Source of the DNA: Bacteroidota bacterium | GTDB lineage: Bacteria > Bacteroidota > Bacteroidia > UKL13-3 | Length of the DNA: 50,923 nt | Assembly (NCBI GenBank): GCA_040386055.1 | Contig: JAZKGH010000189.1 | Coordinates: 1-50,923 of the forward strand | Direction of reading: 5' to 3' | Shown: piece after piece, positions 17,108 to 46,543 of the stretch | Layout: the number at the start of each line of letters is the position of its first letter | How positions within the stretch are numbered: the first letter of the stretch is position 1 | Program-made: the position numbers and the translations under genes | The notes under the pieces: model-generated | The model's input: only the letters and a program-made list of their open reading frames with translations | Database searches by the model: none | Told to the model about the DNA's origin: nothing

Positions 17108-17797
17108 TTACCACTCGTCTTCATCAACCACCGGTTTTTCTTTCAAAGCTTTCTTGAAGCTCTCAATCATCTTGTTAATGTCCCTGTCGGCATAACGTAA
17201 TATTGAATCAACACCTTTTATATTGGTTGTAGTGGTATAGTAATATTCGAAATAATTGCGGTTAGGTGATCCCTGATTTGGTTTTATCGCTTCATGTGCA
17301 AAGTTTGTAATGGAGTACTTGTAACGTCCTTCTTTAATAAGGATGGTCATTTTAAACAAGTACTTACCGTTAGGTTGTTTTGCATATTTATTGGCATACG
17401 AGTAAGCGGGAACCGATCCGTTTATGATGAGCTTTTGGTTTTTCTTATCTAACTCATACATCGCTTTGGGCTCACTTTTCCCATTTTCACTAAAGGTTTT
17501 GATCGCCCATTTTTTGGTACGGATATATAAAGAGTCAGAACTGCTTTCTTCCTGTTCTACCACACCGGTGTAAGTAATCAGGTTTGTTAGCGTATCCATA
17601 GCCAACACAATACGCTCGTAAGGTTTTACTACCACGGCAGTTTCAGCAGTCTGGTCTCCTTCTTGTGTATCACTTGGAGTGGCGGTGCTATCTGTAGTTG
17701 TATTAAAATCAAAACCAGGAGAATTAGGATCCTGAGTTTGTGCCGATACAAAAATTCCGGCAAGTACTAATGCAACTACACTAAAATATTTCTTCAT
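17108..17797 (-). CDS. Secreted hypothetical protein, possibly DUF4468-like.
   Basis: It has the signal peptide MKKYFSVVALVLAGIFVSAQ, a low-complexity Thr/Asp linker, and a beta-rich domain. Confidence 0.5.
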   Translation of the reverse strand: MKKYFSVVALVLAGIFVSAQTQDPNSPGFDFNTTTDSTATPSDTQEGDQTAETAVVVKPYERIVLAMDTLTNLITYTGVVEQEESSSDSLYIRTKKWAIKTFSENGKSEPKAMYELDKKNQKLIINGSVPAYSYANKYAKQPNGKYLFKMTILIKEGRYKYSITNFAHEAIKPNQGSPNRNYFEYYYTTTTNIKGVDSILRYADRDINKMIESFKKALKEKPVVDEDEW

Positions 17798-17975
17798 CTT
17801 TACGTTACTTTCGGTTAGGGTGGATTAACAAGCTGTCAAAAATAGAAAAAGCATTCATTTTTCAAACTGTCAATATTTATATTTTCAACAGACGCTCTTA
17901 TCCTATATATATCAACAAATATTAGTTGTGTTTATTGTGTGTGAAGGGGTTAAAAACACCATATTTGCCGTTTCA

Positions 17976-19652
17976 ATGATGCAACAACACGTACACACTA
18001 TTTCTCAAACTTGTGCAGCAGCAGGTATTAAACATGCTGTTATTTGTCCGGGCTCTCGTTCAGCACCTCTTGTATTTGCTTTTACCCAAAGCGGAATGAG
18101 CTGCCATAGTGTGGTAGATGAACGCAGTGCGGCATATATGGCTTTAGGCATGGCACAGCAGCTTAATGAACCGGTGGTGCTTATTTGCACATCCGGTACG
18201 GCAGTGCTCAACTTCTTTCCTGCCATAGCCGAAGCCTATTACCAGAAAATTCCTTTGCTAGTGTTAACTGCCGACCGCCCGCCCGAATTACTCAACCAGC
18301 AGGATGGCCAAATGATTATGCAACGGGAAGTGTATGGCAAACACGTACGAAAAAGCTTTGAATTGCCTTGTTATATGCATGGCAAAGAAAACACTACCGA
18401 AACGAAGAAGATAATGCAGCAAGCAATTGCAGCAACCTTGAATAAAGGAAAAGGTCCGGTGCATGTAAATATTCCTCTACGCGAACCACTCTACCCAAAC
18501 CCAATAACCTTAAAGCGCACGTTAAAAACAAAAATTACGAAAGTGGAGGCAAGTCCAAATCCGGTTTCTTTAGCAGAACAAAAATGGGTAACGGATGTCT
18601 GGGAACGGAGTAAACGCAAACTGGTACTTGTGGGTCAGATGCCTTGTGACGGCTCTTTAAATGGAGCGTTACAAGAATTGCAGCATCATGATGATGTGGT
18701 GATTGTATGCGATGTTCTATCCAATGAATACGAATTTAATACAGCAGCACAGTTTGACTATTTACTTCAACGGGCGGATGCCAAAACATTGTTGGAGCTG
18801 GAACCGGATTGTATCCTGTCGTTTGGAGGGCCTGTATTATCAAAGTCTCTCAAGCTCTGGTTGCAGACTATTAAACCAGTATCTCACGTTCGGTTTAATG
18901 TGAATGAGGATAGTATTGATACCTATAAAAATGTAACTAAACATATTCAGGGGAATCCAGCATCGCTGTTGTTTCAACTTGGATTAATGGTCAAAACCCC
19001 AACCCCAAATCGTTACAAACATTTCTGGTTGGTGGCGAATGCCGTGGTGGCCCATTATACAGAACAATTTGTTTCAGATCATACATGGAGTGAATTGCAT
19101 GCTATGAACGAAGTGCTGAAATATATTCCGGATGCAGCCAATGTGCAGGTGGGCAACAGCTCGATCATTCGATACCTCAGTAATTTGGGAACACTAAACC
19201 CAAGTTGGATAATGAATGGCAATCGCGGTACGAGTGGTATTGATGGTTGTACCTCAACCGCAGTGGGTGCTGCTAAGGTTAATAACAGGCCAACGTATTT
19301 GCTCACGGGTGATATTGCCTTTTTGTATGATATCAATGCATTGTGGAACACTCTTCCTCATAATTTAAAGATCATTGTGTTTAACAATGAAGGAGGAGGC
19401 ATTTTTCAGTTAATTGACGGTCCCCCTAAACACAAGGGGCAACTGGAATATTTTACCACACCTCATCACCAGTCTATCAAACAAATTGCTTTGCAAAAAG
19501 ATGTGGAGTATTACTTTTGCGCCTCGCCAAATGATTGGAAACAAACCAGAAATTTTTTTGACAATACATATAAAGCAGCAGTGCTTGAATTGAAATTTGA
19601 CCGCACTCAAAACGCTTTGGTGTTTGACATGTTTAAGAAGATAAAACTATAA
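17976..19652 (+). CDS. menD: 2-succinyl-5-enolpyruvyl-6-hydroxy-3-cyclohexene-1-carboxylate (SEPHCHC) synthase.
   Basis: It is a ThDP enzyme reading CPGSRSAPL...[11 protein letters not shown]...CTSGTA..N...LTADRP...[10 protein letters not shown]...GDIAFLYD.N. It sits directly upstream of menB. The ATG at 17976 is preferred over the GTG/TTG-type start at 17928. Confidence 0.9.
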
Positions 19653-26166: not shown

Positions 26167-28551
26167 ATGTATAAAGAGCGCTTCCAATTTGCTGTACAGC
26201 ATTTTTGCCTGAGTTATGGATTGCTCATTGTGTTGTTTTGGCTGGTTCGAATAGCGGAATTTGTGTTAGTTAGCGAAGCCAACTTGTTTCCTGAGCATCC
26301 AATGCCTTTGATGGCGGCAGGTTTTGCATTTGATCTGTGGTTTTGCCTCTTCCTATCCTTAGTTACTTTCCCCTTTTATGTGGTTTCATACCTAATCATT
26401 GGGCCATTTACCCGATACTTTTTGGCTATTGGTTTTATATTGTTTTTATTGGTGGATCTGGCATTGGTTCAATATTATGTGCAAACAACGTTACCGCTCA
26501 GTGCTGATTTTTGGGGTTATTCATTAGCCGATATTCAAACAACCGTAAACGCTTCAGCCGATTTTAGCATCCTTACTTTTGTTCCTTTTATGGTAGTACT
26601 GGCATTGTTTTTTTATACTTATAAGAGAGTGCAGGAAATATTTTTGCCAAATTGGGCATTGTATATGTTTTATGGATTGGCTTTGGTTTCGAGTGTCTTT
26701 TATGTTCTGAAAACACCTGATGCAACTTGGTTTACCACTGAAAATGATTACACTTTCAGTATGAATAAGATGGCTTTTTTTGCCGAAAAATCAGGAAGAT
26801 TTTATACAGAAGACATCGACAAAAACTCAGTTGCTGATACCGAATATCCCCTGGTGCATGTTGCTGATACCATAGATGTATTGAGTCCTTATTTTGATAG
26901 TTTGGAGCAGAAACCCAATCTGGTATTTTTGGTGATTGAAGGATTAGGCGGAACATTTGTGGGACCGAATGCCCGCTATGGTGGCTGTACACCTTTTCTG
27001 GATTCACTTGCCCAACACAGTTTGTATTGGCAAAATACTTTGAGTACAACAGGAAGAACGTTTGGTGTGCTTTCATCATTGTTTGGATCACTCCCGTATA
27101 ATGACAAGGGATTTTTGGAAACGGGTTCGAATATGCCAACGCACCTTACTTTGCTTAGTTTGCTCAAACAACACGGATACAATGTCCATTACTTTTATGG
27201 TGGCAATTCCAATTTCGATTTGCAGGATGTGTTTCTGGAAAAACAGGGTGTTGATTATATTTTGAGTTCTGACAAATTCCCTGCATCGTATCAAAAATTG
27301 AAAGCCAATAGTGAAGGTTTTTCATGGGGGTATTCTGATGAAGATGTATTTAAACGCTCTCTTGAATTGTTCCCGGCTGATACAGCCAAACCAACGCTTT
27401 CAGTGTATCTTACATTGAATACACATGAACCGTTTAGGGTTCCAAATCAACCTAAATACTTAGCATTACTGGATAAAGTCATGCATACCAAAACGGGAAC
27501 CGAACAAAAAAACTACAAGCAATATGCACTTGAACTTTCAAGCTTGTTGTATACAGATGATGCTATTCGTAATTTAATGGAAGCATATAAAAAGAGACCT
27601 GATTATACCAATACGATCTTTGTGATTACGGGTGATCATCGTATGATACCAATACCCCAGGTGAATCGTATTGACCGTTTTCATGTGCCGCTGATTGTGT
27701 TTTCACCTAAGTTGAAACGCTCACAAACATTTTCGTCTGTTAATACTCATCATGATGTTACACCCACACTACTTTCGTTTTTACAACATCAAACAGGGAT
27801 GACATTTCCCTATCAAGTACATTGGTTAGGAAAACCAATGGATACAACGGTTACATTTCATTCCATTCGCGATATAGCTTTGATGCGGAATAAAAATGAA
27901 CTGATAGATTATATTGACGGAGAGTATTTTTTATCTGATAACATTGCGTACCGTATTACTCCAAAGCTTGATTTGGAAAGGCTAGCGCGTGGTTCTCCGG
28001 AGGAAAAACAATTGAAAGCAAAAATGACTGCTTTTAAGCAGATGAACAAGTATGTGTTTGCCAATAATAAAATTTACAATGACAGTTTAGGGAAGACAAT
28101 TCCAAAAGAATTTAACTTTACTTATCTTGAAAAATTGACACTCCGGTTTATGGGTGTTGAGGGCATGAATCCGGAACAGTTGTTGGCCGCAGCTTATAAA
28201 CGAACAATCGTAAAACAATACAATAACGCACGATTGATTTGCAAATGGTGTCTTATCACGAGTCCGAATTTTATCGATGTGCGGTTGGTTTTGGGTCGTA
28301 CATATGCATGGGAGGGCAATTATGATGAAGCGCAAAAACAGTTTTCCGAAAGTGTGAAACGTTCACCCCTGAATGGAGAGGCCTGGAGGGCACTCATTGA
28401 TAACGAGTTATTATTTGGTCATTATGAAAAGGCAATTGAAATTTCGAAGCAAGCACATACAATAATTCCTAAAAGGGATTATACGGATAGGATAAAGGAG
28501 GCAAAGGCTTCACTGAAAAGACTAGTGAGTATGCCACCGCCAAAGATTTAA
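26167..28551 (+). CDS. Polytopic LtaS/sulfatase-family (alkaline phosphatase superfamily) enzyme with a C-terminal TPR domain.
   Basis: The N-terminal ~190 aa contain about five transmembrane helices. These are followed by NLVFLVIEGLGG, STTGRTFG (candidate Thr nucleophile), NTHEPF and VITGDHRM. The C-terminal ~150 aa are TPR-like (LGRTYAWEGNYDEAQKQF...). Confidence 0.75.
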   Translation: MYKERFQFAVQHFCLSYGLLIVLFWLVRIAEFVLVSEANLFPEHPMPLMAAGFAFDLWFCLFLSLVTFPFYVVSYLIIGPFTRYFLAIGFILFLLVDLALVQYYVQTTLPLSADFWGYSLADIQTTVNASADFSILTFVPFMVVLALFFYTYKRVQEIFLPNWALYMFYGLALVSSVFYVLKTPDATWFTTENDYTFSMNKMAFFAEKSGRFYTEDIDKNSVADTEYPLVHVADTIDVLSPYFDSLEQKPNLVFLVIEGLGGTFVGPNARYGGCTPFLDSLAQHSLYWQNTLSTTGRTFGVLSSLFGSLPYNDKGFLETGSNMPTHLTLLSLLKQHGYNVHYFYGGNSNFDLQDVFLEKQGVDYILSSDKFPASYQKLKANSEGFSWGYSDEDVFKRSLELFPADTAKPTLSVYLTLNTHEPFRVPNQPKYLALLDKVMHTKTGTEQKNYKQYALELSSLLYTDDAIRNLMEAYKKRPDYTNTIFVITGDHRMIPIPQVNRIDRFHVPLIVFSPKLKRSQTFSSVNTHHDVTPTLLSFLQHQTGMTFPYQVHWLGKPMDTTVTFHSIRDIALMRNKNELIDYIDGEYFLSDNIAYRITPKLDLERLARGSPEEKQLKAKMTAFKQMNKYVFANNKIYNDSLGKTIPKEFNFTYLEKLTLRFMGVEGMNPEQLLAAAYKRTIVKQYNNARLICKWCLITSPNFIDVRLVLGRTYAWEGNYDEAQKQFSESVKRSPLNGEAWRALIDNELLFGHYEKAIEISKQAHTIIPKRDYTDRIKEAKASLKRLVSMPPPKI

Positions 28552-28596
28552 ACTAAGTTAATTGCATAAGCTCTATTTTTGAATATAATCTAGTAC

Positions 28597-29856
28597 ATGT
28601 ATAAACTCATATTCATATTCTGTATTTTCCTTGCAACTGTTGCAGATGCACAAATGGATACAACCCAAATGGGAGCAGATGATCTATACTCACTGGCCCG
28701 AGAGAAGGCTTTTAGTGGTGACAGAGAAGGTGCACGTAGACTGTGTAGTCTGGCATTGGAAAAAAGTCCGAATTATCATGAAATAGCATTATTGATAGGA
28801 AGGACTTATGCATGGGACGGAAAAAAAGAAGAAGCAAGAAAAATATACAAAGGTATTCTTGCGAAAGAGCCCAATCATATTGAAGCAACATTGGCGTTGG
28901 CTGATGTGGAACTGTGGGACGATAAACCTCAGGATGCATTGGTTGCATTAGATAAATGCCTGACAGTATATCCCAATAATTTTGATTTGTTGCTCAAGAA
29001 AGCAAAAGCACTCATTGATGCCAAACTGGAAAATGAAGCCATGATGGTGTTGAGCCGGGCATTGGAGATTGATCCGGGATGTGTGGCCTGTATTCAGCTC
29101 AAACAAAAAATAAAGACAAAAAAATTCAAGCATACCTTATCCGTAAATGCAGCAACTGATGTTTTCTCTGCATATTTTGATCCGATGTATTATTCATCCC
29201 TGCAATTTGGATCGGTAACCAAACCGGGCACCGTTGTGGGCCGAATCAACTACACCAACCGATTCAATCAAAGCGGGATTCAACCTGAAGTGGATTTTTA
29301 CCCGGGTTTGTGGAAAGGTGCCTATGGATATTTGAACTATGGATTTACAACCTCATCCTTATTTGCACGTCACCGTGTAGGAGGTGAAATATTTCAATCG
29401 CTGCCGCGTAGTTTTGAAGCATCCTTAGGATTGAGATATTTGGATTTTGGAGCGGGCAATTCAATGACCATATACACAGGATCATTGGGTTGGTATTATA
29501 AAAACTATTGGTTTAATGCACGCACCTTTATCACTCCGTCAAATGGAACTTTTTCACGCTCGCTAAATGTAACAGCTCGCAGGTATTTTGCAGATGCAAA
29601 CAATTACATTGGCATTACGGCAGGAGCGGGTTTTTCACCTGATGCCCGAAGGATTCAGACCAATGAAGGATTGAATCCGGGTAATAATATTTACTTATTA
29701 AAGGCTCAGAAAATTGAATGCAACCTGCAAAAGAGTATTCGGTACAATATGAATTTCACTCTTGATGTATATTATTCGCATCAGGAACTCAGTTTCAGCT
29801 ACGGAGAATATGTGAATGTGGTGGGCATTACAACAGGTATTAAAATTAGACTTTAA
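28597..29856 (+). CDS. Outer membrane protein with an N-terminal TPR region and a C-terminal YaiO-like beta-barrel.
   Basis: It has the signal peptide MYKLIFIFCIFLATVADAQ and three or four TPR repeats (IGRTYAWDGKKEEARKIY...). About 240 aa of alternating-hydrophobic beta-strand pattern follow, rich in Tyr/Gly/Asn and ending in GIKIRL. The family name is from memory of YaiO-domain proteins. Confidence 0.65.
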   Translation: MYKLIFIFCIFLATVADAQMDTTQMGADDLYSLAREKAFSGDREGARRLCSLALEKSPNYHEIALLIGRTYAWDGKKEEARKIYKGILAKEPNHIEATLALADVELWDDKPQDALVALDKCLTVYPNNFDLLLKKAKALIDAKLENEAMMVLSRALEIDPGCVACIQLKQKIKTKKFKHTLSVNAATDVFSAYFDPMYYSSLQFGSVTKPGTVVGRINYTNRFNQSGIQPEVDFYPGLWKGAYGYLNYGFTTSSLFARHRVGGEIFQSLPRSFEASLGLRYLDFGAGNSMTIYTGSLGWYYKNYWFNARTFITPSNGTFSRSLNVTARRYFADANNYIGITAGAGFSPDARRIQTNEGLNPGNNIYLLKAQKIECNLQKSIRYNMNFTLDVYYSHQELSFSYGEYVNVVGITTGIKIRL

Positions 29857-29867
29857 AGCAGTAACAA

Positions 29868-30677
29868 ATGCTAACAACAGATCCTATTGGTAAAAATAAT
29901 GTGGTTGTGAAGGGTAATCTTCACGCCCGCGAAACCATTATTTTTAGTAATGGGTTTGGTACAGAACAATCTGTTTGGGATAAAGTGATAACTCCTTTTT
30001 TAGAGAATTACCGCATTATTTTGTATGACCTTGCTGGTTCCGGAAAATCGGATATGAATGCTTTTAGCTCCCATAAATATGATAGCCTGCGGGTGCATGC
30101 TGATGATTTAATTGACATATGCAAACGCATGCTTGTGAAAGATGCGATTTTTATTGGACATTCAGTAAGCGGAATGATAGGCATGCTTGCAGCGATTAAA
30201 GCTCCGCAGTATTTTTCGAAGATGGTTTTCATAAGTGCCTCTCCGCGTTACATCAATGCAGATGAATATGTTGGCGGATTCACACAAGAAACGTTAGATG
30301 AATTGTACCGGAACATGGAAACAAATTATTTTGCCTGGATTAGTGGTTTTGCCCCAATGACAATGCTCAATAGTGATAAACCTGAATTGGCAGAAGGGTT
30401 TTTGCAAACACTATCTGCCATTCGTCCTGATGTGGCTGTATCCGTAGTACGCACCATTTTTCAAAGCGATTACAGAAGTAGTTTGAAAGAGTTAACCAAA
30501 CCTGCGCTATTGATTCATTGCGATAACGATATGGCTGTTCCGGTAACTGTAGGAGCCTATATGAATGAACATATACCAAACAGTCAATTGGAGTTAATAG
30601 CTGCAGAAGGCCATTATCCTCATGTGAGTGCACCGGAGGCTGTAATCAAAGCAATTCAACGATTTATAGAAGTATGA
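29868..30677 (+). CDS. RsbQ / D14 / KAI2-type alpha/beta hydrolase.
   Basis: This 269-aa protein reads KNNVVVKGN...IIFSNGFGTEQSVW...ILYDLAGSGKSD...FIGHSVSGMIGM (nucleophile elbow) ...LLIHCDNDMAVP...AEGHYPHVSAPE. It is collinear with B. subtilis RsbQ as I recall it, and the Ser/Asp/His triad is intact (about S99, D221, H249). Confidence 0.85.
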   Translation: MLTTDPIGKNNVVVKGNLHARETIIFSNGFGTEQSVWDKVITPFLENYRIILYDLAGSGKSDMNAFSSHKYDSLRVHADDLIDICKRMLVKDAIFIGHSVSGMIGMLAAIKAPQYFSKMVFISASPRYINADEYVGGFTQETLDELYRNMETNYFAWISGFAPMTMLNSDKPELAEGFLQTLSAIRPDVAVSVVRTIFQSDYRSSLKELTKPALLIHCDNDMAVPVTVGAYMNEHIPNSQLELIAAEGHYPHVSAPEAVIKAIQRFIEV

Positions 30678-33151
30678 TGGAACGGGAACAAGATATAGAT
30701 TGGAATGCACACGCACTTGATTTTTTGGTGAAGCTTTCACCGATAAAAAAAATAAGGGAACAAGCACAGTTGATACGTGAAGTATTTTCACTGGTGGAAG
30801 AGTATATGCTGGCAGATGCTGTTTGTTTTTACCGCAATTTTGATGAACTCACCACACGAGTTGTTTTAGCGTCAAAGAAACAGGTTTTTCATTCGCACCT
30901 GAATCCGGATAGTGTACAAAACTATATCCGCTCAGACGAATATCAATCTGTGGAAAAAATATTTCAACCACTGTTTTTCATCAATGAGCAATATGAAAAG
31001 TGTATTGTGATTCCGCTATACAATACTGCATTGTCGGGTGGTTTGATTATGGGCTGGAAGGCCCTTAAAACGGATGAGGCAGGGTTCGATCGTTTTTTAA
31101 CGGGTGTGCAGATGGGAATGAATGAGATGATGCAACGTATGAGTGTGTATCATGAAATTGATGAACTCACCACGCGTTTTAATGCCATTCTCGAAACCAT
31201 TCCTGAAGGAATTGTGTATGTAGATGATTCGGGAAAATCAGCATGGGTAAATACAGTGGGTAGTGAATTGCTTAAGTTGAATCAGGGGAGCAATCAACCT
31301 TTTTTGGTTGCAACAGCTATGCAGGAATTGCGCAGCGGAGCAGTGAATCAGGAGGAGATTAATGAAATAGCGAATAAACTTTTCAGCGAACCCAATCAAA
31401 CCATTAAGGATTGGAAATGGATTATCGGAGACCCCATTCTATCCGTACTGCGTGTGGCCTGCAAACCCATTTCTTCACCGCTCGTAAATGGCCGGTTATG
31501 GGTATTTACCGATATTACCTTTTCACATATTGCTAATGAGCAACTAAAGGAATTAAATGAGGAACTCGCCATAAAACGTAATCTGGCCGATGAACAGAAT
31601 CAAGCTAAGTCTGAATTTCTGGCCAATATGAGTCACGAGATCCGTACACCAATGAATGGTGTAATCGGGATGACAAGTTTGCTTATGCATACGATACTCA
31701 CTGAAGAGCAAAAAGAATATGTTGACACTATTCGATTGAGTGGTGAAACACTGCTTTCACTTATCAATGATATTTTAGATTTATCCAAAATTGAATCTGG
31801 TAAGTTAGAAATTGAAGAAGCTCCAATGAGCTTGGTAAAACTGGTGGAAGAAACATACGACTTGCTTTCGGTACGTGCTAATGAAAAGGGGCTGGATTTA
31901 TTATACCTCATTGATCCGAATGTTCCGTCAGAGGTATTGGGTGATCCTACCCGTTTGCGACAAATATTGCTTAACCTTGTTTCCAACGGTATCAAGTTTA
32001 CTTCCAAAGGAGATATCCTCATTCATGTACAATCGATTGGTAAGCAAGAGGACGTTTACCATATTCAGATAAGCGTGAAAGACACCGGAATTGGGATACC
32101 TGCCAATAAATTCAACACTATTTTTGAGAGCTTTTCACAGGTTGACACATCCACTACACGAAAATATGGAGGAACGGGATTAGGCTTAAGCATTTGTCAG
32201 CGTTTAGTGAATATGATGGGAGGAACGATTTCTGTGAGCAGCACGGAAGGGTTAGGCTCTACCTTCACATTTAATATAAAAGTACACGCTAACCGTGAAG
32301 TGAAGCAGTTTGATTTTGCCCCCGTTGTAAAAGACACGCTGCTTACCGGCAAAAAAATACTCATTCTGGATGACAATGAAACTAACTTGCAGATTTTACA
32401 ATCCCAATGTAAATTATGGGGAATGAATCCGGTAATTTTTAACGATTGTCATTTGGCCATTGCGGAAATGGGACAGCAGGAGTTTGATTTGGCCATTGTA
32501 GATATGCTTATGGAGGAGTATGACGGTGTTGCTGTGGCAAGAGAAATGAAAATGAAATTTCCGGATAAAAAAATTCCGATTATTTTATTCAGTTCATTAG
32601 GATTCTCTCATTTTAAGAATAAGGAAGATAAAGATCTGTTTGCAGCAATACTGGTAAAGCCCACAAAACATAGCATGTTGAAAAAGACGATGATGGATAT
32701 ATTGGGTAGAAAAGAAGGATCTGAAATGGCAACAATGTCGGCAAGTGTTCTTTTATCTCAAACACAATCCATTGACAATATCCGTATCTTAGTGGCAGAG
32801 GATAATGACACCAATCAGAAACTCATTCGTAAAACTCTTGAAAAGCTGGGTTACGGATGTGAGCTGGTGAACAATGGTGTGGAGGCTGTAGAGGCTGCAA
32901 AGCGCAAGCAATACGATTTGATTTTGATGGATGTAATGATGCCGGAAATGGATGGGTATGAAGCAACTCAACAGATTATTGTGGGTGCTAAAGCCCATAA
33001 ACCCATTATTATAGCCATGACGGCAAATGCGTTGGCAGATGATAAGAACAAGGCTATGCGGGCAGGCATGGATGACTATATCAGCAAGCCTTTCCGCATT
33101 GCAGATATTGAAGAAAAAATAAACAAATGGAAACCGCATTTTCAGAATTGA
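30674..33151 (+). CDS. Cytoplasmic hybrid sensor histidine kinase with the architecture GAF-like, PAS, HisKA, HATPase_c, REC, REC.
   Basis: No transmembrane helix is present. The PAS region reads RFNAILETIPEGIVYVDD...GRLWVFTDIT, the H-box reads SEFLANMSHEIRTPMNGV, and the kinase has N/G boxes (LLNLVSNGIKFT, DTGIGIP, GGTGLGLSI). There are two receiver domains (LILDDNE...IVDMLM; ILVAEDND...LILMDVMMPEMDG...SKP). The start ATGATG overlaps the hydrolase stop by 4 nt. Confidence 0.9.
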   Translation: MMEREQDIDWNAHALDFLVKLSPIKKIREQAQLIREVFSLVEEYMLADAVCFYRNFDELTTRVVLASKKQVFHSHLNPDSVQNYIRSDEYQSVEKIFQPLFFINEQYEKCIVIPLYNTALSGGLIMGWKALKTDEAGFDRFLTGVQMGMNEMMQRMSVYHEIDELTTRFNAILETIPEGIVYVDDSGKSAWVNTVGSELLKLNQGSNQPFLVATAMQELRSGAVNQEEINEIANKLFSEPNQTIKDWKWIIGDPILSVLRVACKPISSPLVNGRLWVFTDITFSHIANEQLKELNEELAIKRNLADEQNQAKSEFLANMSHEIRTPMNGVIGMTSLLMHTILTEEQKEYVDTIRLSGETLLSLINDILDLSKIESGKLEIEEAPMSLVKLVEETYDLLSVRANEKGLDLLYLIDPNVPSEVLGDPTRLRQILLNLVSNGIKFTSKGDILIHVQSIGKQEDVYHIQISVKDTGIGIPANKFNTIFESFSQVDTSTTRKYGGTGLGLSICQRLVNMMGGTISVSSTEGLGSTFTFNIKVHANREVKQFDFAPVVKDTLLTGKKILILDDNETNLQILQSQCKLWGMNPVIFNDCHLAIAEMGQQEFDLAIVDMLMEEYDGVAVAREMKMKFPDKKIPIILFSSLGFSHFKNKEDKDLFAAILVKPTKHSMLKKTMMDILGRKEGSEMATMSASVLLSQTQSIDNIRILVAEDNDTNQKLIRKTLEKLGYGCELVNNGVEAVEAAKRKQYDLILMDVMMPEMDGYEATQQIIVGAKAHKPIIIAMTANALADDKNKAMRAGMDDYISKPFRIADIEEKINKWKPHFQN

Positions 33152-33153
33152 CT

Positions 33154-33510
33154 ATGAACAAACAGGAATACACTCATATTAATTTGTCATACCTCTATGA
33201 TATTGCAGATAATGATATTGATTTCGTAAAGGAGATGATTACGGATTACATCATAAAAGTACCGGTGCAGTTTACCGAAATGCAGACCGTATTCTGGGAA
33301 CGCAACTTTGAACAAACACATTTTATTGCGCATAAAATTAAATCGGCTTTTCAGTTTGTGGGGGCACAGCAACTGGTTGAATTGGCCCGCAATATTGAAA
33401 GGGTAAGTGAGACACAAGATATAGAAACCATCACACAGGATCTGGCCGCAATGGAGCCTGTTGTAAAATTGGTATTAACAGAATTGCAATCTGAATTGTC
33501 TGTTCTCTAA
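33154..33510 (+). CDS. Stand-alone Hpt (histidine phosphotransfer) protein.
   Basis: It reads FIAHKIKSAFQFVGAQQLVELARNIE, the HxxKG-type Hpt motif, in a ~118-aa helical protein. The ATG lies 2 nt after the kinase stop. The longer 33127 start would overlap the kinase by 25 nt. Confidence 0.8.
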   Translation: MNKQEYTHINLSYLYDIADNDIDFVKEMITDYIIKVPVQFTEMQTVFWERNFEQTHFIAHKIKSAFQFVGAQQLVELARNIERVSETQDIETITQDLAAMEPVVKLVLTELQSELSVL

Positions 33511-33525
33511 TTTCATTCGGACCTC

Positions 33526-33888
33526 ATGAAAAGAATATTAATAGTAGAAGATGAAGACTTGATTTTGAAGGCGCTTGAATTCAGGCTTCGGAGGGACGGC
33601 TATGACGTCATAAAGGCAAAGGATGGTCGCGATGGATTAAAGGCCATTGAAACGGAAATGTTTGATTTACTGATTACCGACATGATGCTTCCCTTTAATA
33701 ATGGACTTGAAGTGGTGAATAAAGCAAAAGAAATGAAGGGTAAGAATTTTCCGGTGATTGTTCTTTCCAATGTTGGCTTGGAAAATGTGGTATTGGATGC
33801 TTTCAAGCTGGGTGCTGACGATTATATTACTAAACCATTTAGCCCGGTAGAGTTATCGATAAGGGTAAAAAGGCTCTTAAATAAGTAG
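33526..33888 (+). CDS. Single-domain CheY-like response regulator with no output domain.
   Basis: This 120-aa protein reads ILIVEDEDL...DLLITDMMLP...VIVLSN...DDYITKPF, so all the receiver acidic pocket, Thr/Ser and Lys positions are present. Confidence 0.9.
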   Translation: MKRILIVEDEDLILKALEFRLRRDGYDVIKAKDGRDGLKAIETEMFDLLITDMMLPFNNGLEVVNKAKEMKGKNFPVIVLSNVGLENVVLDAFKLGADDYITKPFSPVELSIRVKRLLNK

Positions 33889-33932
33889 GATTGCAGACCT
33901 TGCTGTTTATATGGCCCCGATTTGGTTTTCGC

Positions 33933-35042
33933 ATGGAGTCACTATCCTCGAGCAAATCAGACCAGTATGATACTATCATTACATTTTGTATTGCCTTTAT
34001 TGTTTGCTGTCTTTCGGGTGCGTTCATTACCGGGGTTTATTTATTTTATATCAGGTTTCGTAATCAGTACTATGCCAAACGTATTGCCAGATTGGAAGAA
34101 CGTTACGGCTTGTTGCTCACCGGAATTATTTTTGATGAGGAAGACGAACAATTCGAAGAAAAGAGAAAGAAATTAATCAAGCATTTTAAGAAAACATATT
34201 TGCGTTCGCATTTTAATAAGCGTGTGTTGCGCAAAGAACTTCTTAAATTATATAAGAGCTTTAGCGGGTCCTCACAAAAAGTTTTGCGGGATTTGTATCT
34301 TGAATTGCGTCTGCACAAAGAAGCATTAGCAGATTTAAACAGTACCGATTGGAGTGTAAGAGCTGATGCAGTTAAAGAACTCGGTCAGATACAGTACACA
34401 GATGCAAAGCTTAAAATGTTGAAGTTGAGTTCTCACGAAAATCCAGAATTACGGCTGGAGGCACAAGCCGCTTTTCTGGCATTGGAAAAGGAAAATCCAT
34501 TTGGGTTTTTGGAGACAGCTAAAGCAAAAATTACCGAATGGCAACAGTTGAATCTGGAAGAAATAGCCAAACGAATAGAGTCGGATAAAATACCATTGTT
34601 TGCCAGTTGGTTTGGGTTACGCAACCAATCAGTGGTTGAATTTTGTGTGAAGATGACGGCAACCTTTAATCAGTTTGAGTCGGGTGAGGCGCTGATACAA
34701 TTGTTGCATGCCAAGGATATTCGTGTTGCCAAGGAAGCGGTAAAAGCATTGGGAAATCTGTTTGTAGTTGAAGCACAATTGCCCCTCATAGAATTATATC
34801 CCGGAAGCTCTCAGGAGGTTCAGAATGAAATTATCATGAGTCTTGGGAAACTTGGGGGAACAGAAGTGTTGCAGTTTTTAACAGATATTTTATACACGGC
34901 TCCGCATGAGCAAGCCATGAAGGCAGGTATGGCCATTCGCTCAACAGGATATGATGGAGATCTTATTTTGCAGCAGGCATTGCAAAGTGAAGATACACAT
35001 GTAGTAGCTATTGCGGAACATATGTTAGATGAAAGAATATAA
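33933..35042 (+). CDS. Membrane-anchored HEAT/PBS-lyase-like repeat protein.
   Basis: It has one N-terminal transmembrane helix (TIITFCIAFIVCCLSGAFITGVYLFYI), followed by repeated helical units: DWSVRADAVKELGQI, NPELRLEAQAAFLAL, DIRVAKEAVKALGNL and QEVQNEIIMSLGKLG. The start could instead be the TTG at 33891, which is 2 nt after the receiver stop. Confidence 0.65.
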   Translation: MESLSSSKSDQYDTIITFCIAFIVCCLSGAFITGVYLFYIRFRNQYYAKRIARLEERYGLLLTGIIFDEEDEQFEEKRKKLIKHFKKTYLRSHFNKRVLRKELLKLYKSFSGSSQKVLRDLYLELRLHKEALADLNSTDWSVRADAVKELGQIQYTDAKLKMLKLSSHENPELRLEAQAAFLALEKENPFGFLETAKAKITEWQQLNLEEIAKRIESDKIPLFASWFGLRNQSVVEFCVKMTATFNQFESGEALIQLLHAKDIRVAKEAVKALGNLFVVEAQLPLIELYPGSSQEVQNEIIMSLGKLGGTEVLQFLTDILYTAPHEQAMKAGMAIRSTGYDGDLILQQALQSEDTHVVAIAEHMLDERI

Positions 35043-35044
35043 GG

Positions 35045-36457
35045 ATGATTGAGATTTTTAATAATGCTATTCTATTATATGGTATAACGATTACGTTATC
35101 GTATGTGCTATTGGCTATTATTTCGGCAAGGGCACTCAATTATTATATTCGTAAAAACAAGTTTGTATCACATGAGGCATTGCTGTCATCACCCAATGCA
35201 CCATCAGTTTCATTGATTGCTCCCGCTTACAATGAAGAAAAAACAATTGTCGAGAATATTCGGTCCCTCTTGTCTATTCACTACAATAACTTTGAAGTAA
35301 TTATTGTGAATGATGGTAGTAAGGACAATACATTACAAACCATGATTGAGGCGTATGATTTACAGAAAGTAAATTTTGCCATACACCAGGAGTTACCCGG
35401 AAAACCGATAAGGGGTGTATATAAAGCCATGAATCCTGCATATAAAAAGCTCACTGTAGTAGATAAGGTAAATGGCGGGAAAGCAGATGCACTGAATGCC
35501 GGTATCAATATTTCCTCCTATGATTTGATTACTTGTATTGACGTGGATTGTATTATTGAACAGGACGGAATATTGCGTATGGTAAAACCTTTTATGGAGG
35601 AAAACGTAAAGGTGATTGCCAGTGGAGGAGTCATTCGCATTGCCAATTCATGTGAGATTGAAGATGGAAAATTAATTAAAGCACATGTTCCTAAAAGTTT
35701 GGTTGCAAGATTTCAGGTAATTGAATACTTAAGGGCTTTTTTAATGGGGCGTATGGGATGGAGTAAACTCAATGGACTCTTGCTTATATCCGGTGCGATG
35801 GGAATGTTTGACAGACGTATAGCCATAGCCAGTGGAGGGTATAATCACAATACTGTGGGTGAGGATATGGAACTGGTGGTGCGCATGAGGCGTTATATGG
35901 CCGATCGGAAAATAAAATATAAAGTAACCTACATTCCTGATCCACTTTGTTGGACGGAAGCTCCTTCCGATTACAAAATTCTTTCCCGCCAACGTAATCG
36001 CTGGATGCGGGGAACTATGGAAACACTATGGATCCACCGCAAACTGGCCTTCAATCCTCGTTATGGATTATTGGGATTGATAAGTTATCCATACTGGATG
36101 TTTTACGAATGGTTGGCTCCGGTGATTGAGTTTTTAGGAGTGTGTTATTTCGTATTTTTGATTGTAACGGGTTACGACAACTGGTATTTGTTTATGGTTT
36201 TGTTTCTGGTAGTGTATGCCTTTGCCATTTTCATGTCGTTTCTGGCATTATTGTATGAGGAACTTACATATCATCAGTATACAAGCAAGCGCGATACCTT
36301 GAAGTTGATGCTTACTGTTTTGCTTGAGCCGATTATCTATCATCCACGCAGCACCTGGTGGGGACTCAAAGGAAATATTGACAAAATAAAAGGTAAGAAT
36401 ACATGGGGAGAAATGACCCGTGCTGGTTTCAACAAGGTTGAAAATAAGAATGTTTAA
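35045..36457 (+). CDS. Processive family-2 glycosyltransferase (a PgaC/IcaA/BcsA/NodC-like polysaccharide synthase).
   Basis: It has an N-terminal transmembrane helix, then SLIAPAYNEE, IIVNDGSKDNT, GGKADALNAG, CIDVDCII (DxD), GEDMEL and SRQRNRWMRG (the Q-x-x-R-W processivity motif). About four C-terminal transmembrane helices follow. No PilZ-like RxxxR/DxSxxG tail is visible. It starts 2 nt after the HEAT gene stop. Confidence 0.85.
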   Translation: MIEIFNNAILLYGITITLSYVLLAIISARALNYYIRKNKFVSHEALLSSPNAPSVSLIAPAYNEEKTIVENIRSLLSIHYNNFEVIIVNDGSKDNTLQTMIEAYDLQKVNFAIHQELPGKPIRGVYKAMNPAYKKLTVVDKVNGGKADALNAGINISSYDLITCIDVDCIIEQDGILRMVKPFMEENVKVIASGGVIRIANSCEIEDGKLIKAHVPKSLVARFQVIEYLRAFLMGRMGWSKLNGLLLISGAMGMFDRRIAIASGGYNHNTVGEDMELVVRMRRYMADRKIKYKVTYIPDPLCWTEAPSDYKILSRQRNRWMRGTMETLWIHRKLAFNPRYGLLGLISYPYWMFYEWLAPVIEFLGVCYFVFLIVTGYDNWYLFMVLFLVVYAFAIFMSFLALLYEELTYHQYTSKRDTLKLMLTVLLEPIIYHPRSTWWGLKGNIDKIKGKNTWGEMTRAGFNKVENKNV

Positions 36458-36517: not shown

Positions 36518-37465
36518 ATGGTACACATGAATACATCCGGAATAGCTATACATGGTGGAGCAGGAACGATTTTACGTTCCCTTATGACTCCTGAAAAAGA
36601 GGCACTATACATTAAAGGGTTACAGGATGCAATTATTGCAGGAAATGCGGTATTGGAAAAAGGCGGATCAAGCTTGGATGCAGTAGAAATTGCGGTGATG
36701 ACACTTGAAGATTTCCCCCTGTTTAATGCGGGCAAAGGTGCTGTGTTTACCAACAAGGGAACGCACGAAATGGATGCCAGCATTATGGATGGATTAACAT
36801 TGGAGGCGGGTGCCGTTAGTGGTATCAGCAATGTGCAAAATCCGGTTCATTTAGCAAAGGTGATAAAGGAAAAAAGTGGTCATGTTTTTTTATGCGGACC
36901 CGAAGCAGAAGCTTTTGCCAAACAGATGGGATTGCCGTTTCAACCGGATGCTTATTTTTATGAAGAAGGGCGCCACAAACAATGGCAGGAAGTAAAAGAC
37001 AGTAATGGCTATCAACTGGATCATACAGTGAATAGCGGTGAAGGAAAAAAGTTCGGAACCGTTGGCGCAGTGGCGTTGGATAAACATGGAAACCTAGCAG
37101 CAGCAACATCAACAGGCGGCATGACCAACAAACGTTTCGGGCGCATTGGCGACACTCCGATGATTGGCGCAGGAACGTATGCAAACAATAAAACATGTGC
37201 AATCAGTTGCACAGGACATGGTGAATATTTTATCCGTGCCGTAGTGGCTTATGATATTAGCTGTTTAATGGAATACAAAGGAATGAGCTTGAAGGAAGCA
37301 TGCGACTTTGTTGTGAAAGATAAGCTTGTAAAATTTGGTGGTGAAGGTGGATTGGTTGCGATGGATGCTATGGGAAATATTGAGTTACCCTTTAACAGCG
37401 AAGGAATGTACAGAGCGTGGAAAAAGGGAGATGGAAATATTGAGGTGAGGATTTACGAAGATTAA
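36518..37465 (+). CDS. iaaA: Isoaspartyl peptidase / L-asparaginase (Ntn hydrolase).
   Basis: It reads IAIHGGAG...FNAGKGAVF...GTVGAVALD.HGNLAAATSTGGMTNK..GRIGDTP.IGAGTYA. The autocleavage Thr lies in GTVGAV. Confidence 0.9.
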   Translation: MVHMNTSGIAIHGGAGTILRSLMTPEKEALYIKGLQDAIIAGNAVLEKGGSSLDAVEIAVMTLEDFPLFNAGKGAVFTNKGTHEMDASIMDGLTLEAGAVSGISNVQNPVHLAKVIKEKSGHVFLCGPEAEAFAKQMGLPFQPDAYFYEEGRHKQWQEVKDSNGYQLDHTVNSGEGKKFGTVGAVALDKHGNLAAATSTGGMTNKRFGRIGDTPMIGAGTYANNKTCAISCTGHGEYFIRAVVAYDISCLMEYKGMSLKEACDFVVKDKLVKFGGEGGLVAMDAMGNIELPFNSEGMYRAWKKGDGNIEVRIYED

Positions 37466-37587: not shown

Positions 37588-38457
37588 TTAAGCAGTCACT
37601 TCTTCACTCGCAATAAACTTGCGCTCTTTCAATAAATACTGATTGCCTCTTACAAGGATGCTCACACGTAAGTTTTCTACTGCAATGGGTTCGCCCATGC
37701 CAACTTCGGTAATATTGCTGTGACGTATATCTTTTCCATCTACAATAACCACAGCACCGCTACCCACTACCTCCAAATTGGTACCACCTGTTACAATTAT
37801 ACCGGTATCTTCACCCAACCCTATTCCGGTACATTGCGGATTGCTGGCTACGGCTTGTGCCAAACGGTTAAAACGACCACGTTTGTCGAAATGTGAATCA
37901 ATAATCACGTTGGCCATAAACGCCAAACCGGTTGTGATTTTTACTTCACCTTTTAAGTGCGCCAACTCACTTTTGCCTTGATAGATCATGGTATTGCTCA
38001 TAGCCATTGCACCCGCACTGGTTCCTGCAATTACAAATCCTTCTTCATTCCAATAACGTTCGTGTAAAATGGTATAGATATCGGTGCCGCCAAAAATGCT
38101 GGTTAAACGCAACTGATCGCCTCCGCTAAACATAATACCATCCGCTTCTTTTACACGCTGAATATATTCTTCGTTGAATACATCTTCGCGTTTACGTATA
38201 TCCAATACACCCACATTTACGCACCCTATTTTACCAAATGCTTCCTGATAGTTTGCACCTACTTCAGTAGGAATGGAAGATGCTGTGGTGATAACTTCAA
38301 TACGTTTTTCAACGCCACCCACTTCATCCACAAAACGTTTTAAAATGCCAAGCTCGAAAAAATTGAGTCGGTTTCGCTGTATAAAGCCTTGCTCTAAGTC
38401 TGTTCCCTTATCTTCTGCACCGCCTACAGAAATCAGTTTTCCTTTAGGATATTCCAA
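37588..38457 (-). CDS. cphB: Cyanophycinase (peptidase S51).
   Basis: It reads LISVGGAEDKG...GIMFSGGDQLRL...VIAGTSAGAMAMS (Ser nucleophile) ...IIDSHF..RGR..RL, the cyanophycinase pattern. Confidence 0.9.
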   Translation of the reverse strand: MEYPKGKLISVGGAEDKGTDLEQGFIQRNRLNFFELGILKRFVDEVGGVEKRIEVITTASSIPTEVGANYQEAFGKIGCVNVGVLDIRKREDVFNEEYIQRVKEADGIMFSGGDQLRLTSIFGGTDIYTILHERYWNEEGFVIAGTSAGAMAMSNTMIYQGKSELAHLKGEVKITTGLAFMANVIIDSHFDKRGRFNRLAQAVASNPQCTGIGLGEDTGIIVTGGTNLEVVGSGAVVIVDGKDIRHSNITEVGMGEPIAVENLRVSILVRGNQYLLKERKFIASEEVTA

Positions 38458-43891: not shown

Positions 43892-46543
43892 ATGCTTATG
43901 CAAATCCTCGACATTAAAGTAATGCGTGGCCCCAATTACTGGTCTGTTCGCAGACATAAACTGATTCAAATGCGCCTCGATCTGGAGGACATGGAACAGA
44001 AACCTACCAACAAAATTCCCGGATTCAGAGAACGTCTAGAAAAGTTGTTTCCGAGTATGTACGGACACCGTTGTTCAGTTGGAACTCCGGGCGGATTTTT
44101 TCAACGTGTGGATGACGGAACATGGATGGGACATGTGATTGAACATATTGCATTAGAATTACAAACACTTGCCGGAATGTTCTGCGGTTTTGGCCGCACA
44201 CGCAGCACAGGAAAAGAAGGAGTATATAATGTAGTGTTTAGTTACATGGAAGAAAAAGCGGGAATTTATACCGCGAAAGCAGCTGTAAGAATTACAGAAG
44301 CATTGATTGCCGGAACGGATTATGATTTATCAGAGGATATTCAAAACCTGCGTGTGATTCGTGAAGAAGAACGCCTTGGTCCAAGTACAGGTTGTATTGT
44401 TGATGAAGCTGTAGCACGGGGTATTCCTTATATCCGTTTAAACAAACATTCATTGGTGCAATTGGGATATGGTGTGAATCAGCGCAGAATTCGCGCAACC
44501 ATTGCAAGCACTACAGGGAGTATTGCTGTTGATATTGCCTGCAATAAAGAAGAAACGAAAAACTTATTGGAAGCGGCTGAAATTCCGGTACCACGTGGTC
44601 GTATTGTGTACAGCGAAGAGGGAATGAAAGAAGCTATCGATCGTATCAAGTATCCGATTGTAACCAAACCCGTAGATGGAAATCATGGTAAAGGTGCCAC
44701 TACAAATATCACCAATTGGGAAGATGCAGTAAAAGGATTGGAAGCAGCCAAAAAATATTCGCGTGGTGTGATCGTAGAGAAATTTATTACGGGACAAGAT
44801 CACCGAGTATTGGTGATTAACTACAAGTTCGTTGCCGCTGCTATTCGTAAACCCGCTGCTGTTATGGGTGATGGCAAAAGCACCATTCAGGAGTTGATCG
44901 ATAAAGTGAACGAAGATCCGCGCAGAGGATACGGTCACGAAAAAACCTTAACACAAATTAAGGTGGATGAGTTCACCATGAATATGCTCACAAAAGAGAA
45001 CCTGACATTGGACAGTGTGTTACCTGCAGGCAAGGAACAATGGCTGAAACCAACAGCAAATTTAAGTACGGGAGGAACAGCAACTGATGTTACCGACCTC
45101 GTGCATCCCGATAATATTTTTATGTGCGAACGTATTGCACGCATTATCGGATTGGATATTTGCGGCATCGATATCATGGGCGAAAATTTAACGGAACCGG
45201 TGAGTGAAAACGGTGGCGCAATTCTGGAAGTAAATGCTGCTCCGGGTTTCCGCATGCATATTGATCCGGCCGAAGGATTACCACGTAATATTGCCGAACC
45301 TGTAATTGATATGTTGTATCCTCCGGGGAGCAGTGCACGCATTCCGATCATTGCAGTGGCAGGAACCAATGGTAAAACAACCACTACGCGATTAATGGCA
45401 CACATGGCCAAAACCATGGGCTATAAAGTAGGGTTTACCACTACCGATGGTGTATATATTCAAAATCAGTTGATGATGCGCGGTGATTGCACCGGACCGG
45501 TAAGTGCAGAGTTTGTGTTGAAAGATCCAACCGTTGATTTTGCTGTACTGGAATGTGCACGTGGTGGAATTCTGCGCGCAGGTTTGGGCTTTCACAATTG
45601 CGACATGGCCATTGTGACCAATGTGGATGAAGATCACCTCGGCTTGCAAGATATTGATACCATTGAACAACTGGCCCGCGTAAAAGCTGTAGTTCCAGAT
45701 AGTGTGTTGCCAAGCGGTTATGCTATTTTAAATGCGGATAACAAATGGACTGCTGCCATGCACAAAGGACTGGCTTGTAAAGTTGCCTACTTCAGTATGG
45801 ATGAAAACAATCCGATCATTAAGGAGCATATAAACGGTGGCGGATTGGCCGCTATTTATGAAAACGGGTACGTTACTATTTGCAAAGGCACCTGGAAAAT
45901 TCGTGTAGAGAAAGCAGTGAATATTCCGCTTACGTTTGGCGGACGCGCTGCCTACAATATTGCCAATGTGTTGCCAACGGTTTTGGCCGGATTCATCCGC
46001 AACTATAAAGTTGAAGATATGCGTGTGGCCTTGGCTACATTCATTCCGGGTCCGGCACAAACTCCGGGTCGCATGAATATTTTCCGCTTCAAACATTTTG
46101 AGGTGATGATAGATTACGCACACAACACTGCAGGCTTTGAAGCCATTGGCGAAATGCTGGCTAAGATAGAAGCCAAACACGTTGGCGTTATAGCCGGTGT
46201 GGGCGACAGACGCGATGAGGATACCATAGCACTGGGTGCACAAGCGGCTAAAATGTTTGAGGAAATTATCATACGCCAGGATAAAAACCTGCGGGGTAAA
46301 ACAGAAGATGAAATTATTGATTTGATTAAACAAGGTATTCATTCGGTTGACCCGGGTAAAAAAGTAACCTCTTTTAAAAAGGAAAGAGATGCCATCGACT
46401 TTGCCATCAAAAATGCGCGTAAAGGAACATTCCTCACCATATGCAGCGATGTAGTACCCGATGCATTAGATCAGATCATGAAGTTGAAAGAGCAGGAAGA
46501 TTTGGGAGAGATTGAGTTAGGATTGGAAGAGGCGAGTGCTTGA
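43892..46543 (+). CDS. cphA: Cyanophycin synthetase.
   Basis: This 883-aa protein has the N-domain ILDIKVMRGPNYWS, an ATP-grasp domain (PIVTKP.DGNHGKG...) and a Mur-ligase-like M domain (AVAGTNGKTTTTRL...DYAHN). Confidence 0.95.
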   Translation: MLMQILDIKVMRGPNYWSVRRHKLIQMRLDLEDMEQKPTNKIPGFRERLEKLFPSMYGHRCSVGTPGGFFQRVDDGTWMGHVIEHIALELQTLAGMFCGFGRTRSTGKEGVYNVVFSYMEEKAGIYTAKAAVRITEALIAGTDYDLSEDIQNLRVIREEERLGPSTGCIVDEAVARGIPYIRLNKHSLVQLGYGVNQRRIRATIASTTGSIAVDIACNKEETKNLLEAAEIPVPRGRIVYSEEGMKEAIDRIKYPIVTKPVDGNHGKGATTNITNWEDAVKGLEAAKKYSRGVIVEKFITGQDHRVLVINYKFVAAAIRKPAAVMGDGKSTIQELIDKVNEDPRRGYGHEKTLTQIKVDEFTMNMLTKENLTLDSVLPAGKEQWLKPTANLSTGGTATDVTDLVHPDNIFMCERIARIIGLDICGIDIMGENLTEPVSENGGAILEVNAAPGFRMHIDPAEGLPRNIAEPVIDMLYPPGSSARIPIIAVAGTNGKTTTTRLMAHMAKTMGYKVGFTTTDGVYIQNQLMMRGDCTGPVSAEFVLKDPTVDFAVLECARGGILRAGLGFHNCDMAIVTNVDEDHLGLQDIDTIEQLARVKAVVPDSVLPSGYAILNADNKWTAAMHKGLACKVAYFSMDENNPIIKEHINGGGLAAIYENGYVTICKGTWKIRVEKAVNIPLTFGGRAAYNIANVLPTVLAGFIRNYKVEDMRVALATFIPGPAQTPGRMNIFRFKHFEVMIDYAHNTAGFEAIGEMLAKIEAKHVGVIAGVGDRRDEDTIALGAQAAKMFEEIIIRQDKNLRGKTEDEIIDLIKQGIHSVDPGKKVTSFKKERDAIDFAIKNARKGTFLTICSDVVPDALDQIMKLKEQEDLGEIELGLEEASA

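Follow-up and report, generated by a model that had tools for sequence, protein, structure and literature searches.

A conserved receiver-HEAT-GT2 gene module of Bacteroidota and a candidate phosphorylation-based switch for exopolysaccharide synthesis

How might a polysaccharide synthase be switched on when the genes around it encode a phosphorelay and no recognisable receptor for cyclic di-GMP (c-di-GMP)? In all the well-studied systems of synthase-dependent exopolysaccharide secretion (those for cellulose, poly-N-acetylglucosamine, alginate and Pel), it is c-di-GMP, to our knowledge, that turns the polymerase on. The question is raised by contig JAZKGH010000189.1 of a Bacteroidota bacterium (assembly GCA_040386055.1), of which a stretch of 50,923 nucleotides (nt) was analysed, hereafter the window. 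At positions 33526-36457 of the forward strand, three co-directional open reading frames (ORFs), separated by gaps of 2 nt and 2 nt, encode a response-regulator receiver (REC), a HEAT-repeat protein and a family 2 glycosyltransferase (GT2). They are the last three genes of an eight-gene run (26167-36457, Table 1) in which neighbours are spaced by 2-45 nt or overlap, and which is best explained, from its gene content, as a single operon that encodes both a synthase-dependent exopolysaccharide secretion system and a phosphorelay dedicated to it. An earlier sequence-only reading had described the triplet as a receiver, a HEAT protein with a single transmembrane (TM) segment and, 2 nt later, the synthase, a layout that we confirm at these positions; it had further proposed that the HEAT protein docks the phosphorylated receiver on the synthase, by a kind of control of which its author knew no characterised example.

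Conservation of the triplet among loci

The co-occurrence statistics that had been suggested as a check of this proposal were obtained from 80 metagenomic loci around GT2 orthologues (54-72% identity) and 10 further loci from protein look-ups and a genome scan; scanning genome contigs with an alignment of close HEAT homologues returned a single locus. All the ORFs of these loci were scored with profiles built from the window operon, and dereplication of the GT2 proteins at 90% identity gave 75 clusters. Among the 59 loci with at least 1.2 kb upstream of the GT2 gene, 57 have the HEAT gene directly upstream, with fewer than 200 nt between the end of a HEAT-family ORF and the start of the GT2 gene. 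Of 65 HEAT-GT2 pairs, 28 share 4 nt where the HEAT stop meets the GT2 start, and another 10 share 1 nt. There are two kinds of exception: in L076 the HEAT and GT2 genes are separated by a kinase gene, and in the L052/L055 lineage the GT2 carries a C-terminal SPOR domain (L052, 2187-4289) and the locus has neither HEAT gene nor receiver.

Receivers were counted in the 49 loci that contain a HEAT gene and have 3.2 kb or more of upstream sequence. A receiver-only gene directly precedes the HEAT gene in 31 of them and is found somewhere in the locus in 47, the two without it being truncated loci; when it does not directly precede the HEAT gene, the order is mostly REC-YaiO-HEAT-GT2. The 1.05 Mb of sequence hold 51 receiver-only ORFs of the family versus 8 others, and as 3 of these 8 occupy the family position, the background is about 5 per 1.05 Mb.

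Receiver, HEAT and GT2 are kept together in at least seven gene orders and in several Bacteroidota orders, for example as REC-HEAT-GT2-sulfatase in Pedobacter sp. ASV28, as REC-x-x-HEAT-GT2 in Limnovirga soli, as REC-HEAT-GT2 after a kinase cluster in Nibribacter koreensis and as REC-HEAT-GT2-sulfatase-YaiO in Chryseolinea sp. H1M3-3. This last order recurs with a 694-aa HEAT protein that is 27% identical to that of the window. All the 120 matches listed for the GT2 share at least 59% identity with it, and the named hosts among them are Sphingobacteriales, Chitinophagales, Cytophagales and uncultured Bacteroidia. Retention despite repeated rearrangement points to a functional module and not merely to inherited synteny; these comparisons are good evidence that receiver, HEAT and GT2 form a conserved functional module, far beyond what chance would give.

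Properties of the encoded proteins

Response_reg is the sole Pfam domain of the receiver (Table 1), and the earlier claim that it lacks an output domain holds. It has the acidic pocket E8/D9, the phospho-acceptor D52 and the further expected residues S81 and K103, with a conservation of 90% or more for each of them among 48 orthologues, which also keep a GADDYITKPFSPxEL motif in the alpha4-beta5-alpha5 region; in the compared loci the orthologues are 119-171 aa long. With its best NCBIfam similarities to the receivers of PhoB, VanR and RpaB, it looks like an OmpR/PhoB-type receiver that lost its DNA-binding domain.

As it is preceded by a HisKA-HATPase-REC-REC kinase and an Hpt gene, we infer that the receiver is the terminal phospho-acceptor of the relay; the same role had been assigned to it before, and both the gene order and the intact phosphorylation residues speak for it. 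At the level of domains and residues, the window encodes the components of a His-Asp-His-Asp phosphorelay. The start of the Hpt gene overlaps the end of the kinase gene by 25 nt. The kinase has no TM segment, and its sensor region shows a weak PAS match (residues 168-204, E 0.005, below the Pfam cutoff). Its start is overlapped by the stop of an alpha/beta hydrolase gene whose product matches, over nearly its full length, the KAI2-like structure 6atx (E 6e-68) and Bacillus subtilis RsbQ (1wom, E 1.2e-65) in the PDB. This overlap makes the hydrolase a likely signal-input partner of the kinase, and by analogy with its relatives it may supply a small-molecule cue to the relay. As in the B. subtilis RsbQ-RsbP pair and the plant KAI2/D14 receptors, a hydrolase of this family is involved, here encoded immediately before, and overlapping, a PAS-type signalling protein (the PAS domain being weak here); unlike in those systems, where a PP2C phosphatase or an F-box pathway takes this place, the partner is a hybrid histidine kinase. 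The hydrolase-kinase pair is found in 5 of 50 loci (L001, L003, L004, L008 and L075) and is confined to the clade of the window plus L075.

For the HEAT protein, a TTG start at 33891 gives 383 aa, whereas the NCBI annotation uses the ATG at 33933 (369 aa). The longer ORF is favoured by the residues upstream of this ATG ('FIWPRF'), as these are conserved in two homologues (P0003 and P0005); the two alternative starts account for the gap of '2-44 nt' given in the sequence-only reading. The single hydrophobic segment covers residues 26-56, with a net charge of 0 before it and of +4 after it. Some longer homologues carry a peptidoglycan-binding domain, LysM or SPOR, N-terminal to the TM helix (L024 8475-9971, L051 2364-4061, L066 8358-9962, L088 6393-8027; P0153, P0189, P0192, P0206). 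Charge bias and N-terminal domains together place the solenoid in the cytoplasm, and the predicted topology is N-terminus out and C-terminal solenoid in. The protein of the window would have only about 25 residues outside and has no periplasmic domain.

The AlphaFold2 (AF2) model of the HEAT protein (mean predicted local distance difference test score, pLDDT, 85.6) has a single long helix, covering the TM and juxtamembrane parts, ahead of an all-helical solenoid; together with the HEAT_2 match and with matches to alphaRep proteins this corresponds to the tandem bi-helical repeats of a HEAT/PBS-lyase-type alpha-solenoid. Foldseek searches with the model returned only generic or designed solenoids (alphaRep, armadillo, importin) and no functional analogue. 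An exhaustive profile search delineated a family of 704 representative clusters at E<1e-30, nearly all aligned over their full length, to which a profile search of a word-indexed protein database added few homologues; Pfam and NCBIfam have no model for this TM-HEAT family beyond the generic HEAT repeats. The C-terminal 'HxLDERI' tail, invariant in the close homologues, was considered as a universal motif and rejected, since no more than 16 of 65 loci and 32 of 68 representatives have it. A distant homologue (28% identity) is encoded in L090 (1190-2371) after a YaiO gene and before TetR and ABC1 genes, on a short contig.

The GT2 has one N-terminal TM helix and a C-terminal TM cluster, and its QRNRW and D/DxD motifs are invariant in sets of 25 and of 48 sequences. 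Hyaluronan synthases were the best Foldseek matches to its AF2 model (pLDDT 81.9; E 1e-14, TM-score ~0.6), followed by chitin synthase and BcsA, all of them membrane-integrated enzymes that polymerise and translocate their product at once. Both motifs and model predict an inner-membrane processive synthase of PgaC/IcaA-like architecture, with the Q(Q/R)xRW motif and the putative TM channel that characterise synthase-dependent systems. It scores 134 bits with TIGR03937 (PgaC_IcaA), for a cutoff of 422, and is thus not a PgaC/IcaA equivalog.

Two envelope proteins recur with the triplet, which together with them, and often with an accessory gene labelled 'DUF383', makes up a conserved set that is built like the synthase-dependent secretion systems, Pga and Bcs among them. 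The first, encoded in 30 of 50 loci, is LtaS-like: in the window it has about 5 N-terminal TM segments and a periplasmic domain of the alkaline phosphatase superfamily (Pfam Sulfatase, E 9e-37, with TPR_14/TPR_19; PDB matches 3lxq and LtaS 4uoo), with weak NCBIfam matches to phosphoglycerol transferase I and LtaS. It is predicted to be a polymer-modifying transferase, possibly one that adds phosphoglycerol. In eight loci (L044, L046, L056, L061, L070, L073, L078 and L083) GT2 and LtaS-like protein appear as a single ORF of ~1,130-1,200 aa, with the LtaS-like part at the C-terminus of the GT2 (for example L061, 9962-13507). Such apparent fusions suggest a physical complex of synthase and modifying enzyme like BcsA-BcsG. 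Beside the cluster of L089, a distant locus, a glycerophosphodiester phosphodiesterase-like gene (17590-18477, minus strand) has a weak Pfam GDPD match; this single weak observation would fit a glycerophosphate-modified polymer.

The second envelope protein, of YaiO type, is encoded in 36 of 50 loci. It combines the outer-membrane beta-barrel and the periplasmic TPR scaffold of synthase-dependent systems and is predicted to fill the role of PgaA or BcsC in export. The 'DUF383' gene is found in 21 of 50 loci and is absent from the window; its product (~385 aa) has an N-terminal TM helix and no Pfam match. A second gene of Limnovirga, 'DUF373', contains an HCxxGxxR phosphatase-like motif (coordinates for 'DUF383'/'DUF373': L007 7717-8868 and 6615-7736; L006 13705-14262, minus strand). 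A 289-aa gene that follows the GT2 in L001 and L004 was tried as a relative of 'DUF383' and rejected, the two being unrelated.

The c-di-GMP receptor that synthase-dependent systems possess was not found at the Pfam level: PilZ, PgaD, GGDEF, EAL, GIL and MshEN domains are absent from the eight ORFs of the window operon and from the eight Pfam-annotated loci (L001, L003, L004, L006, L007, L089, L091 and L092), a cryptic binding site being possible.

Action of the receiver and rival readings

Apart from signalling proteins, the conserved set offers just two sizeable cytoplasmic partners, namely the solenoid of the HEAT protein and the GT2 catalytic domain. As the receiver has no output domain, post-translational control of HEAT-GT2 is the most economical explanation of its presence, and we lean, with limited confidence, towards the view that the phosphorylated receiver controls this complex.

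The following scheme can be drawn. By sequence and structure prediction, the processive GT2 is partnered in the inner membrane by the TM-HEAT protein, with its solenoid facing the cytoplasm, and the LtaS-like periplasmic transferase and the TPR/YaiO outer-membrane barrel complete an envelope-spanning machine. The hybrid kinase, paired in the window lineage with the RsbQ/KAI2-like hydrolase, forms a His-Asp-His-Asp relay with Hpt and the receiver, along which phosphate would pass. The phosphorylated receiver, as the terminal output of this relay, would bind the cytoplasmic face of the HEAT-GT2 complex and turn polymerisation on, much as c-di-GMP receptors do in Pga, Bcs, Alg and Pel. A receiver of OmpR/PhoB type such as this one might also dimerise via its alpha4-beta5-alpha5 face once phosphorylated, and this may help to assemble or stabilise the active complex. 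The scheme in its full form, in which a KAI2/RsbQ-type receptor hydrolase feeds the relay (in the window lineage), the receiver docks on the TM-HEAT co-subunit to switch the synthase on, and phosphorylation replaces c-di-GMP in many Bacteroidota, is tentative, and we would call it possible without calling it probable. The broader view, control of HEAT-GT2 by the receiver, gains support from L052/L055, the one GT2 lineage in which the HEAT gene is missing, as the receiver is missing there too.

Several observations weigh against this scheme. The whole case is comparative, its functional statements being drawn from comparative genomics and structure prediction. No fusion of the receiver or of another signalling domain to HEAT was found among 180 HEAT-family proteins, and a REC-GT2 fusion was likewise not found. 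A kinase or Hpt lies within 10 kb in only about half of the loci (an Hpt gene or domain in 27 of 50, a hybrid kinase in 21 of 50). The distant HEAT homologue of L090 has no GT2 after it, possibly because this is a decayed or rearranged system. Finally, the receiver gene is in some loci split from the HEAT gene by the YaiO gene or placed on the opposite strand.

The last point also bears on what the receiver acts upon. Single-domain receivers are known as phosphate sinks or connectors. This one could be a sink or a relay intermediate, or could regulate something unlinked to the locus, such as a transcription factor or motility, and would then sit beside the synthase genes through co-expression only. 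Its distance from HEAT-GT2 in some loci would agree with such a role, as would the several extra receiver-only genes and kinases upstream in Nibribacter. However, an orthologous receiver (more than 100 bits to the family profile, 52% identity) is retained in 45-47 of about 50 loci, ~90% or more, despite rearrangement, the Hpt gene directly precedes it in the clade of the window, and no DNA-binding regulator is conserved across the annotated loci. We consider a sink or an unlinked target improbable.

If the receiver does control HEAT-GT2, the divergence of the three proteins may indicate which partner it touches. In 48 matched triplets, GT2 and the receiver are both highly conserved, averaging 59% and 52% pairwise identity, and HEAT averages 26%. 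Receiver divergence correlates with that of GT2 when HEAT is controlled (partial Mantel test, r 0.53, p 5e-4) but not with that of HEAT when GT2 is controlled (r 0.04, p 0.32), which is a further point against docking on HEAT, by a measure that is crude because phylogeny and the saturation of the fast-evolving HEAT protein confound it. The proposal that the HEAT protein is the docking adaptor thus receives no positive signal from the divergence analysis, and direct contact between receiver and GT2 is a serious rival. The phosphorylated receiver would in that case bind the GT2 catalytic domain, much as PilZ and c-di-GMP act on BcsA, and the HEAT protein would be an obligatory co-subunit of the PgaD/IcaD kind and, for many homologues, a cell-wall tether. 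Besides the contrast in conservation and in partial correlations, this reading is in keeping with the LysM or SPOR domains that HEAT homologues carry on their periplasmic side, or that the GT2 itself carries, and it has a precedent in EpsW of Myxococcus xanthus, a response regulator that touches its enzyme directly (PMC12802240). It is countered by the confounding of the distance correlations just mentioned, by the absence of the receiver from the only HEAT-less GT2 lineage (a single lineage), and by the presence of a ~300-residue cytoplasmic solenoid, a fold that is typically protein-binding and needs a cytoplasmic ligand. We judge direct contact to be rather unlikely, if well worth keeping beside the scheme of docking on HEAT.

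A last reading starts from the same LysM and SPOR domains of HEAT homologues, and from the SPOR domain on one GT2. Relay and HEAT might control where the machine is placed, or how the polymer is modified or exported (by recruitment to the division site or cell wall, or by gating of the LtaS-like enzyme), and not catalysis; the apparent GT2-LtaS-like fusions of eight loci could be taken in this sense. As the HEAT protein of the window has no periplasmic domain and exposes so few residues there, and as the LtaS-like protein has its catalytic domain in the periplasm, beyond the reach of a cytoplasmic receiver, we find this very improbable.

Relation to known systems, and genomic context

Control of catalysis by the receiver at the HEAT-GT2 complex, as we propose, has its closest architectural parallel in Escherichia coli PgaABCD. 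There, PgaC requires PgaD, and c-di-GMP binds at the PgaC-PgaD interface (PMC8461298). The two systems share a GT2 of similar size and architecture (PgaC_IcaA being the best NCBIfam similarity), an adjacent membrane partner, small in Pga, that the synthase seems to require, an outer-membrane exporter made of TPR and beta-barrel, and, as proposed here and described for Pga (PMC8461298), post-translational activation at the synthase-partner complex. The differences are substantial: the window operon lacks both a PgaB deacetylase and a homologue of PgaD, it has the 383-aa TM-HEAT protein as the partner, the barrel is of YaiO and not of PgaA type, and the predicted input is a phosphorylated receiver and not c-di-GMP. 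By its profile scores, the operon does not belong to PgaABCD; in addition to the low TIGR03937 score, the PgaA models gave 21 and 16 bits, against 367 and 1043.

The type II cellulose system of E. coli likewise has a processive GT2 of similar fold, export through TPR and beta-barrel, a synthase coupled to a transferase of the alkaline phosphatase superfamily (the phosphoethanolamine transferase BcsG; here by way of the apparent fusions) and a receiver-like domain in its regulatory apparatus. This domain is the degenerate receiver, REC*, of BcsE, while the receiver studied here keeps all its catalytic residues. The window operon differs further in that PilZ and equivalents of BcsB, BcsQ and BcsR are missing and in that its transferase is LtaS/OpgB-like and not BcsG/EptA-like.

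Two systems come closer to the signalling step. In M. xanthus, phosphorylated EpsW was shown in 2025 to activate the phosphoglycosyl transferase EpsZ by direct contact (PMC12802240), which is the logic proposed here: a single-domain response regulator acting on an exopolysaccharide enzyme. Unlike the GT2 of the window, EpsZ belongs to a Wzx/Wzy pathway, as its monotopic phosphoglycosyl transferase; a CheA-type chemosensory kinase provides the input, and epsW is an orphan gene without a HEAT partner, whereas our receiver is embedded in the synthase locus. In Halobacterium salinarum, switching of the motor requires the HEAT_PBS protein OE2401F, an interaction partner of CheY (PMC2666748), so that a PBS-lyase-type HEAT protein is needed to pass the signal of a receiver to a membrane machine, as may be the case here. 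OE2401F is archaeal, soluble, part of a motility switch and unconnected with a glycosyltransferase, and the likeness is that of a generic repeat type.

Full-text literature searches for the receiver-HEAT-GT2 combination returned no description of it. According to the EpsW paper, c-di-GMP is 'frequently' involved when synthase-dependent pathways are controlled after translation, and the mechanisms listed there are all c-di-GMP mechanisms (PMC12802240). The novelty claimed in the sequence-only reading therefore stands for the gene combination in the literature searched, and has to be narrowed for the principle, since contact activation of an exopolysaccharide enzyme by a single-domain regulator has been reported for EpsW and EpsZ, although not for a processive GT2. 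What appears to be new here is the unstudied TM-HEAT co-subunit and an apparently phosphorylation-based switch; the synthase-dependent exopolysaccharide machine itself is known.

If the proposal is true, it adds a third, nucleotide-independent mode of control for synthase-dependent secretion systems, extends the EpsW-type principle from Wzx/Wzy pathways to processive synthases, and shows how matrix production is controlled in a large and ecologically important phylum. It would also assign a function to the large unannotated HEAT family and offer, in cultured strains, a simple three-protein model for the gating of a synthase. One might further speculate, from the linked RsbQ/KAI2-like hydrolase, about a small-molecule cue for biofilm matrix production.

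Table 1. Genes of the predicted operon, with positions in the window
Feature	Position	Strand	Basis
LtaS/OpgB-like 'sulfatase' membrane protein with C-terminal TPR	26167..28551	+	Pfam, NCBIfam, PDB, TM segments
Outer-membrane TPR + YaiO-type beta-barrel, signal peptide	28597..29856	+	Pfam YaiO E 3.6e-59 + TPR; TIGR04390 E 1.7e-49
RsbQ/KAI2/D14-family alpha/beta hydrolase	29868..30677	+	phmmer vs PDB
Soluble hybrid histidine kinase HisKA-HATPase_c-REC-REC	30674..33151	+	Pfam; no TM segment
Stand-alone Hpt phosphotransfer protein	33127..33510	+	Pfam Hpt E 4.6e-8
Single-domain receiver, 120 aa	33526..33888	+	Pfam Response_reg residues 4-114, E 3e-25
Single-pass TM-HEAT protein, 383 aa	33891..35042	+	Pfam HEAT_2 E 2.7e-17
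Membrane processive GT2, 470 aa	35045..36457	+	Pfam GT2 families incl. Chitin_synth_2

A scan for promoters and terminators gave no enrichment over shuffled sequences, by a method that does not cover Bacteroidota-type promoters, and an Rfam search of the window gave zero matches. Just downstream of the operon lies a gene for an isoaspartyl peptidase/asparaginase_2 (Pfam; 36518-37465, plus strand), followed by a 289-aa ORF (37588-38457, minus strand) in the place that a Peptidase_S51 gene occupies in related loci. Further on, an 883-aa ORF (43892-46543, plus strand) is equal in length to the cyanophycin synthetase of the syntenic loci L001 and L004, and the genes downstream of the operon are probably an unrelated cluster for cyanophycin metabolism.

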